Source: Saccostrea cucullata
Taxonomy: Eukaryota
Assembly (NCBI RefSeq): GCF_032062105.1
Contig: NW_026919509.1
Coordinates: 1 to 64,000 of the forward strand
Direction: 5' to 3'
DNA length: 64,000 nucleotides
The translations under genes and the position numbers were made by a program. Position 1 is the stretch's first letter. Every line of letters starts with the position of its first letter. The notes under the pieces were generated by a model, which saw nothing but the letters and a program-made list of their open reading frames with translations, ran no database searches and was not told the origin of the DNA. Below are positions 40,338-55,698 of the stretch, piece after piece.

Positions 40338-42586
40338 TCAGCTGTCCTCCATTGAGCCTGGAAAGTGATGAAAGTCTGACCCCGGTAATGGCGTCATATA
40401 ACGTGGGGGCGGATCTGAGTGATATTCTGGCGGGCTGGGGTGATGCTGAAATTCGTAGGGTGGGGGCTTCGGAGAATCATGACGATAAATTCTTGAACAC
40501 TGAAAATGTTCATTTCCTGCATCTGAAATGATACACTGAAATTATGCAATATGAAGTTTCATTATGCATAATATTTTAGAACCATAAATTAATATTCCTT
40601 TATAGCAGTTTGCAACATCAGCACATATTTTCTTATTCCAAGTTATCCGATTCTAAAAGTTTTCCTGATTGTTACATTAGAAATTTATTTAGGATTTGTT
40701 TAAAATATGTTTAATTTCTTTTACCGTTGTTTATATGACGATGTCGTCTGACACGTGTTTTCCCTTTGTATACACAACAAACTACGATTCCTATGATTAG
40801 GGCGACACATATCACCCCTCCCGCTATCGCGCCGACATATAAGGCTGTCCTGTGAATAAAAAGGCGAAAGATTGAAAGTTAAAGAAGGCATGGGTTTATT
40901 GTCAATTTTTTTTTGCTACCATAAATATGCATGTATTTTTAATATAAACTGTAATACGAGGTTGATCCAAAAGTGATGTGAAAATATGTTATTTTTTATT
41001 TTTGATAATTTTTTTAAAATTTTTTAAATTTGATATCATTTGATTCATGATTTTATGGCAGTTGTGACATTTCTTTTAAATCAACCTCGTTCATTCAGAA
41101 ATAACTTAAATATTTTTTAAAGTATATTTTGCTTATTGTAAGCACAACTGCTTGATTATCATTATTTTTAATTGCAAGCAATCATTATAATTTATTTTTT
41201 ATCATATTTTTAATCATATTATTTTATTATGATGTACATGTATATTTTTAAATGCACACTTTCATTTCATTAACCTTCTTCATGAAACATATTGGGATTA
41301 CGAACAGTATTCAAGATCAAAGGTCCATAAAACAATACAAAAAAAGGAGCAGAGCAATTACGGACCTCCGAAACATCAGAGGTGGGATCAGGTGCCATGG
41401 AGGAGTGAGCTTCCCCTGCCGACCGGTCACACACCGGGAAATAACGGGAAAATCCGTCGTCAATTCAGTGTATAAATAATGGACTAACAATAAATATGAA
41501 AAACGTCAGTCAGCATTTGACTCAATGATAAATTGTATTTGCTGACAAGGTCATTGTATCGACCATAGAACTTACGAAATGATGACTTTAAATGAGATAA
41601 CTGAAATTCTTGTTTCATCAACTTGTTTGTCAATAATTTACCTCGTTTTAGAAATTGTGCACACGTAGAGCATGCTCTTGCGTATCGAATCAACTGAGAT
41701 ATATAAACTCCGTATGCATGTGATGAAGGTATATTGCTGCATAGGTAAGGGATTATCATAGAGCTTGGTTGTTAGATTACCATAAATGTCTTTTTTTGTA
41801 AAATATCCAAATATGAAACAGATGTGTCAGATTTGGTGTATCTTTAATCTCAAGCTCACCAGGATATATCGTATTGACATAAGAATGGAAATTACTATTG
41901 TTAATTGACAGTACGTCGTCGATATATCTAAATGTCGAGTTAACGGCCACAGCAAGTGTTTTCTTCTTTTCACGCATAGGATTTTGCACAAATGAATTTC
42001 CTAAAAGTTGCTCACTTTTGATTTCAAAGGATACTCCAGGGATCAAATAAGGATCAAATAAAGAAAACTATCATATAGTGTCTACTTGGATGTAATCATC
42101 TTCCAAAGTCAAGAGTTTCAGATTCATTCCACTACATATAAATCGGAGTGGATCAAAAACTCTTTATATTTCTGATGATGTGATATAATAAATTAATAAA
42201 TAATAATACATACGATGTTAGAGCACAACAGTACCGCTCATAGTAAGAACCACAACATGTGACGTCACAGTACATGTATTTAACACCACGTCCACCATTG
42301 TAATTATAGGAGCAGTACTCTCCCCCCAAACATCCTGAAACAATTACATTATATATTTTTAGTTTTTAATAAAATCAATAGAGATAATGAATTGATTCTT
42401 TGTACATATTATATAATTCTTTCTACATAGTAAATGAGGTTAAAAGGTGACATTTTAAGAAGAGAATTTGAAAAAGCATCATAATTTCTTTGGAGGTCAC
42501 AAAAAAGAAATTTAGGAAAAAAGAAAAAAATACTTACCAGATATCAATATCAAGATCTCTGCAAAAACTACATTGTTTCTTGTCAT
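40338..42586 (-). CDS. CYYR1/Shisa-like single-pass membrane protein A, ~159 aa, three PPxY motifs
   Basis: Exons 42586-42538, 42334-42214, 40849-40725 and 40522-40338 (480 nt). Signal peptide; six-Cys ectodomain EYCSY..YCDVTCCGSYYERYCC; TM LYVGAIAGGVICVALIIGIVVCCVY; tail with PPPY, PPEY and PPRY. AATAAA on the minus strand at 40309-40314. Confidence 0.85.
41290..41990 (-). mobile_element. Penelope-like retroelement RT 3' fragment in intron 2 of gene A
   Basis: FRYIDDVLSINN (RT catalytic motif), IYPGELEIKDT, CSNIPSSHAYGVYISQLIRYARACS, FRKFYGRYNDLV; interrupted by frameshifts. Confidence 0.8.
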
Positions 42587-43233
42587 TCCGATATTTTTTG
42601 TGTCTCCATAATATTGTAAACAGCTTTAACAAACGTACATGTATATACCTAATTTAAGCTAAATAATTATCAGGAATGATGTCTGTTTAGATTTAAATGT
42701 CCAAGTATTAAAACAAAAATCAGATAATGGTTTGTTTTATACAGAGCTTTTGACGGCCAGACCATCAAAGGTTTAAATCTCCGAGTTCGTTTATTTCTCA
42801 GTGTTCATTTAAAGAAAAAAATACGTATGTTCATTTCAAGGCATTGAAATTTACACAAGTGTTACAAAATGTAGACTTCTCTCCGAAAAGCGTCGTCAGA
42901 GCTCGAAGTGCTCAACCCTCCTTCTAAAGAAAGAATTCTAAAAGGAGAGACCTAATTGTGAATTGATTTATATACCCCCTCCCCAACCAGCACTGTTGTC
43001 TTTGATGGGAGTTACTATATCTCAGTGTTGAAAAACAAACAAAACGAACTATAAAAAAAAAAACGTTTAAGTTATACCTGATAATTAACTACTATAACTT
43101 TCGTCCAATTTAATATATATATACAACCTAATTTTTCAGTGGATAAAAATCCTATTAAAATCATTTTGTTCCATTAAGCATAAACTTTTAGTTTAAAAAG
43201 AAACTCTCAATATTTTTGACAGAAAAAATGAAT

Positions 43234-43453
43234 TACTGTAGATTCCTTATTTTTTGCGAGTACTTATTATCACAAAATTGTTCTTTAACGTCAAATCGCG
43301 AGAACAATAATTAGCCAGTGGACGGTTGATCAGGATATTTTACATTGATTTCACAACCATAAAAATAGAAGCGAATAATTTTATTTCACGAATGGTGTTT
43401 CTCGCGAAATCACACGATTATTAATTCCTCGCGGATATTTAGGAATCTACAGT
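43234..43453. mobile_element. MITE with TACTGTAGATTCCT termini (inverted sister of 20466-20686)
   Basis: Same TIRs; the interior is the diverged reverse complement of the first copy. Confidence 0.85.
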
Positions 43454-53300: not shown

Positions 53301-53950
53301 ACAATTTCATACTTGTCTGTTATGGGCTCTAAATTAGAAATAAAATGTTCTGTTCTGTTCTGTTCTATGTTGTAATAGAAATAAAGTTCTGTCGCCAATT
53401 GAAAGATCCGTGTTCCCTGTAATTAGAACATTTTAAGATGATTGCTCAAAGGTCTTTACTTTCAACTTTATTGGCATCACGACGTGTGATTGACGTGTCC
53501 AGCGGGACTGTAGATGAAGGAAGACGAAGAAGAGCAACAACAGAGAGAATTTTCCCTGAAATATAGATATCTAGGCTTTGTAATGTTTGTGTATAACTGA
53601 AAAAAATTGTGAAAAAAGAGGCTTTAAGGGTACAGAGAAAAAAATATAAAGAAATGTTAATTCTGGTCATGCGTACTGCTGAGAAAGATTCTAAGAATTT
53701 TGGAATAAATATCTGGAAATGTAAGGATGTAAAGGTTATTTTCAATGATGGTTCAAAACCTGAATGTATGATTATAAAAGGCGGATCCATACAAACGCAA
53801 ATCTTTGATGTACGATAATTAGTGTTCAAGGTTTTTCAGCATCTTTGAAGGACCACAATTAGTATCGTTTCAAAAACAAAACAAAAACACTCATAAACAT
53901 TATAATTTCAGAAGAAGGACAACAAACTCAAGAAAAACAATTTATAGACC
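50330..53950 (-). mobile_element. Old Penelope-like retroelement body, split by a LINE insertion
   Basis: Minus-strand remnant GIPMGNNCAPLLADLFLYSSEAEF at ~50505-50575; similarly decayed coding-like sequence continues beyond the LINE tail. Confidence 0.6.
51449..53366 (+). mobile_element. 5'-truncated non-LTR retrotransposon (LINE, RTE-X-like) ORF2 with reverse transcriptase
   Basis: ORF 51461-52516 has QMGF, CFVDFHKAFDSV, GVRQGDNLSPSLF, YADD and YKYLGV. A frameshift near 52480 leads into ORF 52510-53163 with the C-terminal motif RLC..C..DDETHFLITC. AATAAA and a (GTTCT)n tail lie at 53339-53366. Confidence 0.92.
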
Positions 53951-55101
53951 AGGAAGATGCTGCTGGTAAATTAATGTAGGAAAGCACATTAAGTCGAACA
54001 AATTTCCTCGGAGACTCTCCGTGATGTCTCACTAGCTAATGGAAAGGAAGTTATTTATGTTCTTCGTTAATTACTCTTTTCGTCTTAAGACCATGGCATT
54101 TAATAGCCGTCAACGAATAGAAGAATCTTATTTTTTGTATTTAAAAGTCTGAAAAAGTAATTAAATTAGGTTACGAAAGAAAGAGGACAAACATTTTACA
54201 TTGACAAAAATAACACTACTCCAGACTTTTTTATTATTAGTGAGTCAACAAAGATAATACAAAATATTATTCAGTTCTGTCATTCTACATGACTAAGATG
54301 AAAACAATATCTTTCATTTGCTCTGAAGCCTTAATGAAACATTTCATCATGAATAAATGAATTCAAATACAAGGCTAAAAACTTCAAGTTCTATATTCCA
54401 TTGTGTTTTTTCTTGCAATGTCAAAATTGTAGGCCTATATATAACATCGAAAAGGAACAAGAAATAATATAGATCAGTAATAAAAAAGTACACACAAAAT
54501 TAAGCATTTGATACTGAGCATAGTGTATATAAGTTTAAGTATTTAAAGATGTTTAAATCTGTAAGCTATTGTTAAATACATATATGTTTAATGGCAAACG
54601 TGTGTAAAAAAGATCTCAGAAATATTTAAAAATAAGCGCTTTACATAAATTATTGTTACTAACATTGCATTTAAATCTTGCACTTTACATGCGAACGTAT
54701 TTTCTAACCTGCAATGCATCCTGATAAAGTACATTGAAACTTAAGTACATAGAAATGGGAGAAAAATGAATAAAAAAACACAACTTCTGTGATGAATTTT
54801 AGAAAAATTATGCGTCTTAATAAAAGAGCCAACTTTGGACGTACATATATGTAACGAAGTGCAAAGAAAATTTATAACTAACAATTAACTTTAAATTGCC
54901 GTACATGTTTATGATCAAGCATATCAAAACAAAACAATTTTTAAATGAAATTAAATAAGCTTTTAAACAAATGTACAAGCATGCACTAAAAAGATTTAAC
55001 GTAGAAATAAAACTTTAATACAGAGTGTATCTCTTATCCCCATATCTTAAGTAAGCTACTACGTTTATCAAAAACTCTCCAAAAAGGGGTAAAGTCGATT
55101 T

Positions 55102-55698
55102 TTATGTGGAAGTGAACAACTTTCCACTAGTCCTGGTATATCTGACAGAAGTGTCACGTGGTGCAGTGGGCGTGGCAGCTGGAGAGACGGTGTGTTCATA
55201 CGCAGGTGGAGGGGACATCACTCTGTCCTCAATATCCTGAACTAAAACCACATCATAATTCAATTCATATGTGATGAATATTGATTTTGAAATACAATCT
55301 AACGGTTATTTCTACAGGAGTTAGGTTTTTTTAATTTTATGTTTCAATCTAAAATTACACCAAATTAAGGAATTCTATGGGTAAAAATAAAAAAAAAGAA
55401 AAAAGAAAACAAAATCAGATAAAAACATTTCAGAAATAATAAGGTATATATTTTTTATTTTGTCAGATTGTCCATCTATGCACTACTAACACAACATGAG
55501 TAAAACATTATTACTAGACAATAAAATATCGGCTTTCTACCTGTCAAAATTCGGGCTCGAGATCCATCTGACCACCGAGGGTCTACTCCAACAGTGACAT
55601 TCTTCTTATTGTATTTACTAATACAGCAGCAAGTGACGGAGATGATACACACAATGGCTACCACAGTACCAGACACGACTCCAAGGTACAAACTGGCA
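55102..55698 (-). CDS. CYYR1/Shisa-like membrane protein C: last two exons (5' exons probably beyond the window end)
   Basis: Exon 55698-55541 (ASLYLGVVSGTVVAIVCIISVTCCCISKYNKKNV..) and exon 55241-55102 (..PPPAYE..PTAP..RTSGKLFTST*). Intron phases and the 140-nt last exon match gene B. Confidence 0.8.

Follow-up and report, generated by a model that had tools for sequence, protein, structure and literature searches.

Gene organization

The stretch analysed here (the window) comprises 64,000 nucleotides of the Saccostrea cucullata assembly GCF_032062105.1 (contig NW_026919509.1, positions 1 to 64,000, forward strand). The minus strand of 27600-64000 was inspected, and exon models were built for three adjoining minus-strand paralogues, designated genes A, B and C, which encode Shisa-like single-pass membrane proteins with proline-rich tails (Table 1). 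Every modelled intron has GT-AG borders, and phases 1, 2, 1 are common to the introns that the models share, which bears out the three same-strand paralogues with matching phases of an earlier note on this DNA. Gene A has four coding exons (159 amino acids) and gene B five (218 amino acids). The full gene C protein has 175 amino acids, and only its transmembrane (TM) and tail exons lie in the window, as the note had proposed; the signal and six-cysteine (six-Cys) exons were placed outside by an exon scan and by tblastn with the full protein. The last acceptor of gene C must be 55241, because an AG close to it, at 55236, leads to a stop. The three paralogues and their tail motifs in Table 1 are real; the coordinates that the note had given for PSAPPLY, PPAY and PTAP were verified on the minus strand, and PPPY, PPEY and PPRY were located there too.

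The models of A, B and C are contained letter for letter in the S. cucullata RefSeq proteins XP_062570832.1 (P0067), XP_062570845.1 (P0010) and XP_062570922.1 (P0020), from genes annotated as uncharacterised or shisa-like. These proteins probably derive from the same assembly and are not independent, so the match confirms identity, not expression. RNA contigs from three runs of two studies (the RNA nature of one run being a guess) were compared over 40100-55900; they differ from the window by several percent. The joints 40523-40727 (one letter between), 40848-42213, 46834-47410 and 55241-55541, including the tail joints of A and C, were found in all three runs, while the first intron of gene A appeared in one run's table only, with ten letters between. 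The signal-WAP, six-Cys-TM and TM-tail joints of gene B were not among the joints listed, and its frames there rest on orthologous proteins. Among the coding-exon differences listed between RNA contigs and window, 12 of 16 are synonymous. RefSeq isoforms of gene B (P0012, P0013, P0014) show one-residue differences at two tandem acceptors, 45838 and 46834, and one gene B isoform is without the signal exon.

Table 1 Features of the gene cluster and its surroundings (TM, transmembrane; Cys, cysteine; E, expectation value)
Feature	Position	Strand	Description
Gene A exon 1	42538..42586	-	Start codon, predicted signal peptide; model identical to XP_062570832.1 (P0067)
Gene A exon 2	42214..42334	-	Six-Cys C*C*CC*CC domain; Shisa_N E 0.019, below cut-off; RNA joint 40848-42213, 3/3 runs
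Gene A exon 3	40725..40849	-	TM helix, juxtamembrane CC, basic patch; RNA joints
Gene A exon 4	40338..40522	-	Tail; 12/12 motif columns invariant across 5 species
Gene A tail motifs	PPPY 40466-40455; PPEY 40433-40422; PPRY 40409-40398	-	In exon 4
Upstream ATG frame	42600-42586	-	Short; its stop overlaps the gene A start codon
Gene B exon 1	48323..48386	-	Start codon, predicted signal peptide; identical to P0010; covered by RNA contig piece 48329-48495
Gene B exon 2	47410..47571	-	WAP four-disulfide domain, phase 1-1, acidic; Pfam PF00095; RNA joint 46834-47410
Gene B exon 3	46687..46834	-	Six-Cys C*C*CC*CC domain; Shisa_N E 0.11, below cut-off
Gene B exon 4	46078..46220	-	TM helix, CCC, KYNKKNV
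Gene B exon 5	45699..45838	-	Tail; P[ST]APPLY in 4/4 species
Gene B tail motif	PSAPPLY 45812-45792	-	Overlapping motif in exon 5
Gene C TM exon	55541..55698	-	Full protein P0020; RNA joint 55241-55541, 3/3 runs
Gene C tail exon	55102..55241	-	Tail
Gene C tail motifs	PPAY 55209-55198; PTAP 55170-55159	-	In tail exon
KYNKKNV	46138 (B); 55616 (C)	-	Genes B and C
RTSGVLF/RTSGKLF	45737; 55134	-	Genes B and C
Multi-CARD gene	28400-32200	-	CARD at 31738-31998 (E 1.1e-6) and 29079-29537 (E 3.9e-7), weakly at 31180-31602 (E 0.009); further open exons 30017-30610 and 28733-29095
Four-exon gene	33875-38653	-	Small protein, signal-peptide-like start; last exon weakly CIMR (mannose-6-phosphate receptor repeat), E 6e-4, below cut-off
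Reverse transcriptase	51449-53160	+	LINE (long interspersed nuclear element) type; RVT_1 E 1.8e-28, two overlapping frames
Dispersed repeat family	39325-39719; 41282-41825; 44866-45075; 49163-49873; 35421-35793		Copies 69-87% alike, very high contig depth
Low-complexity tract	55750-57900		Strongly skewed, degenerate 27-28 bp units
Tandem-repeat arrays	2520-3331; 11261-11868; 12467-13231; 34349-34908; 59925-61410		146-167 bp units

Family assignment

The ectodomains of A, B and C carry six cysteines in the order C*C*CC*CC, which is invariant in an alignment of 18 proteins. Each protein has a predicted signal peptide, one TM helix that has Cys close to its C terminus (from the sequence and structure models) and a proline-rich tail with PY motifs. 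This layout is that of the STMC6/Shisa-like family (CYYR1, WBP1, WBP1L/OPAL1, VOPP1, TMEM92; Pei and Grishin 2012, as cited in PMC5578492, PMC6125347 and PMC11399591), for which PMC5578492 sets out the pattern C*C*CC*CC, and PMC6125347 and PMC5037681 provide descriptions; here and below, the statements from these sources and from those marked "in part" rest on the available portions of their text. Gene A resembles human CYYR1 also in having three PPxY motifs, whereas gene B departs from the family in two additions, a WAP domain at the N terminus and a P(S/T)AP that overlaps its PPxY. From the cysteine pattern, TM helix, juxtamembrane Cys and PPxY tail, the three oyster proteins are classed as Shisa-like/STMC6 single-pass proteins, in agreement with the Shisa/CYYR1-type call of the earlier note; their exact STMC6 subfamily is not fixed, as no Pfam STMC6 model reached its cut-off. 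The nearest ESM Atlas clusters (CYYR1, shisa-4-like, WBP1-like and VOPP1; scores 0.80-0.84) serve as leads only. The structure models show an N-terminal helix and one long TM helix. A PDB sequence search with the 18-protein alignment gave eight matches, the best at E 0.31.

WAP domain of gene B

The earlier note had given A and B a signal peptide, a six-Cys ectodomain, a TM helix with CC(C) and a proline-rich tail. That layout holds, but for gene B it overlooked a spliced exon (47571-47410) between the signal and six-Cys exons, so that its ectodomain is not of six Cys alone. The exon encodes a WAP domain (Pfam PF00095, E 3.8e-10, 40.3 bits versus a cut-off of 20.8), is joined to the six-Cys exon in all three RNA runs, and is present in 4/4 S. 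cucullata RefSeq isoforms of B and in the S. echinata and Crassostrea virginica proteins. All three species have the eight Cys, with spacings 10, 3-4, 5, 5, 0, 3 and 3-4, and the domain is acidic (8-12 D/E versus 3-4 K/R). It shares the eight-Cys four-disulfide core of the WFDC/WAP proteins elafin, SLPI and the crustins, and differs from them in being membrane-anchored and acidic and in its Cys2-Cys3 spacing of 3-4 rather than 8. Inhibitory domains of the elafin/SLPI type are marked by Cys1-2 and Cys2-3 spacings of 6 and 8, and shorter spacing may leave no room for an inhibitory site (PMC11408880, in part); the spacings in the three species are 10 and 3, 10 and 4, and 10 and 3. The WAP domain is also the most changed extracellular part, 18/45 residues being identical to C. 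virginica against 31/37 for the six-Cys domain. Its symmetric exon, inserted at a phase-1 intron, suggests an origin by exon shuffling.

Tail motifs and their conservation

Twenty thousand (20,000) shuffles of each tail produced P[ST]AP in 0.3-1.8% of cases and P[ST]APPxY in at most 0.04%; by this measure the occurrence of the motifs exceeds chance. Among orthologues the PPxY cores are invariant, at 9/9 columns in gene A versus 14/48 other gap-free last-exon columns (Fisher p 9e-5), 3/3 versus 1/16 in gene B (p 0.004) and 3/3 versus 12/34 in gene C (p 0.06). The invariance of PPxY in all orthologues found supports the link to NEDD4-family ligases drawn earlier. A proline just before the first PPxY is likewise invariant in A and C (KPPPY, SPPPAY).

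The history of P(S/T)AP differs from gene to gene. In gene B the P-[S/T]-A is kept in 4/4 species (p 0.004, with S and T pooled), reading PSAPPLY in S. cucullata and PTAPPLY in S. echinata, C. virginica and M. gigas, an exchange that stays inside the TSG101 consensus. Because it is kept in all four while the flanks diverge, selection on the overlapping P(S/T)APPLY is likely. This overlap of the LITAF type is present in B and not in A or C, and gene A is without P(S/T)AP in 5/5 species. Gene C has PPAY in 7/7 sequence types and P(S/T)AP in 4/7, or in 2/5 named species: the second motif reads PTAP in S. cucullata, PSAP in C. virginica, RSAP in S. echinata, ASAP in Ostrea edulis, and PNAP plus SIAP in M. 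gigas, and two further sequence types close to M. gigas have PSAP at a different site, directly after PPAY. Three losses among seven types mark the gene C PTAP as dispensable, and its repeated appearance hints at weak selection with turnover. The "selection for the pair" and the P(S/T)AP conservation considered in the earlier note thus apply to gene B and not to A (0/5) or C. Its statement that both motif classes sit at different positions in B and C holds for P(S/T)AP alone, since B PPLY and C PPAY align to identical columns. KYNKKNV and RTSGxLF are common to B and C in the window, as it had noted, but RTSGxLF is not kept in C. virginica B.

Orthologues and divergence

The named records among the relatives were all oysters, in protein searches that were not exhaustive (P0001, P0010 and P0002 each escaped one search). 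Five named species yielded orthologues of A and C, and four yielded orthologues of B. A 16-protein tree set A (100/100) apart from B plus C, with C grouped (80/94, not starred) and two B pairs unjoined; the tree tool warned of long branches meeting. Within each of S. cucullata, S. echinata and C. virginica, the records of A, B and C agree in the length of their longest contig, and some of the locus numbers are adjacent, as judged from the records and not from DNA order. A second S. cucullata C sequence (P0029), 94% identical and carried by an 18-kb contig, could be either allelic or recently duplicated. Two repeat-like, unrelated matches (P0006, P0007) were dropped, and the partial or mis-spliced predictions P0003, P0004, P0008, P0009, P0018, P0028, P0037, P0049 and P0068-P0070 were omitted from per-species counts.

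Identity to S. cucullata in the six-Cys domain is 20-29/30 for A, 26-35/37 for B and 26-31/37 for C (67-97%), and in the tail outside the motifs 30/62 to 56/64 for A, 23/59 to 51/60 for B and 34/62 to 57/64 for C (39-89%). The sole exception to the greater conservation of the ectodomain is C versus S. echinata, where the tail (57/64) is slightly more alike than the ectodomain (31/37). The "diversifying set" with "variable ectodomains" of the earlier note is not borne out: within these searches, the sequences describe a stable small cluster of three orthologous groups.

Proposed function and alternative explanations

The gene structure, four splice joints, domain layout, orthologous groups and motif conservation are observed, and from them the following is considered fairly probable by analogy with characterised relatives: the locus is an STMC6 cluster whose conserved PPxY tails recruit NEDD4-family ligases for endosome-lysosome sorting, with gene B adding a predicted binding of TSG101. 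Human CYYR1, with three PPxY, binds WWP1, WWP2 and ITCH at late endosomes and drives lysine-63-linked (K63) ubiquitination and lysosomal loss of WWP1, and WBP1L is an adaptor for CXCR4 degradation (PMC11399591, in part). On the model of these two human proteins, the oyster tails would bind the WW domains of WWP1/WWP2/ITCH-type ligases at endosomes, and K63 ubiquitination and lysosomal degradation would follow; the sorted cargo could be a bound membrane partner, the ligase or the adaptor itself. The juxtamembrane cysteines are predicted palmitoylation sites. Gene A would work by PPxY alone, and in gene C the PTAP would be a dispensable, shifting motif. [quoted passage not shown] Its WAP domain is predicted to be a binding module and not an elafin-type protease inhibitor.

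The closest known counterpart of the gene B motif is human LITAF/SIMPLE, whose P(S/T)AP overlaps its PPxY (PMC5142333, in part) in the same register, Pro17, Pro20 and Tyr23 (PMC3667717, PMC5142333, both in part). LITAF binds TSG101 and NEDD4 and acts in endosome/exosome sorting; the likeness to gene B is one of motif only. Its PTAP is needed for exosome secretion, which its PPxY motifs oppose (PMC3667717, in part). HRS and ARRDC1 use P(T/S)AP, and Ebola VP40 overlaps P(T/S)AP and PPxY (PMC8402826, in part); ARRDC1 and VP40 share the presence of both motifs in one protein and are cytosolic or matrix proteins, whereas the oyster proteins are, from their sequence, type I membrane proteins. The label "virus-style" given earlier to the tails was overstated, and by these comparisons they are of a host type that viruses also use.

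Several points weigh against this reading. No Shisa, CYYR1 or WBP1 Pfam model was found at cut-off among the 18 proteins. The profile check that the earlier note proposed yielded Shisa_N matches in 5/18, at E up to 0.05 and best 9e-4 (exon scores 13-16 bits versus a cut-off of 22), all below cut-off; with Atlas scores below 0.9 as well, family membership rests on the cysteine pattern and layout. Membership of vertebrate Shisa1-9 was rejected: overall layout and PY motifs are alike, but those proteins have eight Cys, C*C*CC*C*CC*C (PMC10531659, in part), versus six only in the oyster. The predicted structures of gene B (mean predicted local distance difference test score, pLDDT, 51) and gene C (mean 57; its six-Cys domain forms a hairpin of two strands and its tail is disordered) are of low confidence; with the gene B model, Foldseek returned nothing at E 0.001 or better, and the best match of a VIA fold search (Z 4.3) covered the TM helix only. 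The conservation tests rest on 4-7 related sequences with columns treated as independent, and the truncated, duplicated M. gigas record P0001 limits gene B to 16 comparison columns. That record, the single M. gigas B found, is without WAP, and because it is internally duplicated and truncated, loss and mis-annotation are indistinguishable. No O. edulis B was retrieved in the non-exhaustive searches. Finally, the P-[S/T]-A of gene B may serve as WW-binding context rather than as a TSG101 site.

Extended to the whole cluster, this last point would make all three proteins PPxY-only adaptors, the P(S/T)A before the B PPLY forming a WW-binding surface with no TSG101 binding. The invariant proline before the first PPxY in A and C indicates that flanks are constrained anyway, and C loses P(S/T)AP in 3/7 types. 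Against it, the second position in B is only S or T, precisely as in the TSG101 consensus, the Ala does not change where adjacent columns do, and the same overlap in LITAF is tied to TSG101; this explanation is judged unlikely. The reading of the earlier note, a family of diversifying receptors whose paired PPxY and P(S/T)AP are under selection across members for extracellular-vesicle budding, draws on the presence of both motifs in B in 4/4 species, on the requirement of the LITAF PTAP for exosome secretion (PMC3667717, in part), and on P(S/T)AP in 4/7 types of C at two positions versus about 1% per tail by shuffling, which looks like turnover. It is quite unlikely, for there are three orthologous groups with no expansion among the matches, the six-Cys domains are mostly more conserved than the tails, A has no P(S/T)AP in any of five species, and the C site is RSAP, ASAP or PNAP in S. 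echinata, O. edulis and M. gigas; a viral ASAP is reported not to work through Tsg101 (PMC3640512), a wider TSG101 consensus that would admit ASAP found no confirmation in the literature searched, and with the AP of the second C site invariant, the motif is easier to regain than the shuffle rate implies.

Gene B might instead be a membrane-anchored WAP effector (protease inhibitor, antimicrobial or mineral-binding) whose tail controls only its own turnover. The complete eight-Cys WAP, spliced and kept in three species, is in line with this, as are its rank as fastest-changing extracellular part and the enrichment of WAP annotations in mussel foot and mantle (PMC5549309); yet its spacings of 10 and 3-4 are not the 6 and 8 of inhibitory elafin/SLPI (PMC11408880, in part), its acidity is unlike the cationic crustins, and the M. 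gigas record is without it, which together make such an effector decidedly improbable. Capture of the motifs or genes from a virus, or a kinship with p10 fusion-associated small transmembrane (FAST)-like fusogens, is extremely improbable. The gene A TM exon does match Pfam Orthoreo_P10 just below cut-off (E 3e-4, 21.0 versus 21.4 bits), and Ebola VP40 has the overlapping motifs (PMC8402826, in part), but the P10 match spans only TM, CC and basic residues, a stretch that EphA2_TM and TMIE match too, host proteins carry the same motifs, and the genes contain introns of shared phases and have orthologues across oysters. A weak search of viral contigs with one short pattern gave 22 matches, none a relative.

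Neighbourhood of the cluster

Downstream of gene A on the same strand lie a multi-CARD gene and a four-exon gene whose product is likely, from its sequence, a secreted single MRH-type domain. The reverse transcriptase between genes C and B appears 5'-truncated and is covered by RNA-run contigs. The low-complexity tract lies just upstream of the gene C TM exon, inside a gene C intron of >8 kb. The 146-167 bp arrays presumably represent a satellite type that oysters commonly have. In an old M. gigas model (P0058), probably a mis-joined annotation, WD-repeat protein 69 is fused to the orthologue of gene C, a hint that the gene for WD-repeat protein 69 is the upstream neighbour of gene C.

Significance

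Neither the family nor the PY mechanism nor the overlapping motif is new. Literature searches found no link of TSG101 or PSAP to STMC6 genes, judged by titles, and, on shisa in oyster or Crassostrea, no title on these genes; whey acidic protein and shisa came up together only in unrelated contexts. The layout of WAP, six-Cys domain, TM helix and P(S/T)APPLY was not found in the literature searched, which took in few subscription journals and main texts only (the founding STMC6 paper may list such fusions), and no ESM Atlas cluster, among those of 50 or more members, had both WAP and Shisa. A bolder reading, speculative and rather unlikely, is that gene B is an oyster invention in which an exon-shuffled acidic WAP and a self-contained late domain were combined: the protein would load itself on ESCRT-made vesicles and display the WAP as a ligand-binding module on haemolymph, mucus or mantle vesicles, as the first STMC6 protein with a direct TSG101 link. 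The general mechanism being established, the gain is incremental unless such vesicle display is shown. The cluster offers a natural comparison, with PPxY only in A, the overlapping pair in B, and in C a P(S/T)AP present in some species and missing from others. The known role of STMC6 proteins is that of PPxY adaptors to NEDD4-family ligases and, if the reading of gene B is true, a member with a conserved direct ESCRT-I motif and a WAP domain would show this scaffold gaining a new input and a shortcut to vesicle sorting.

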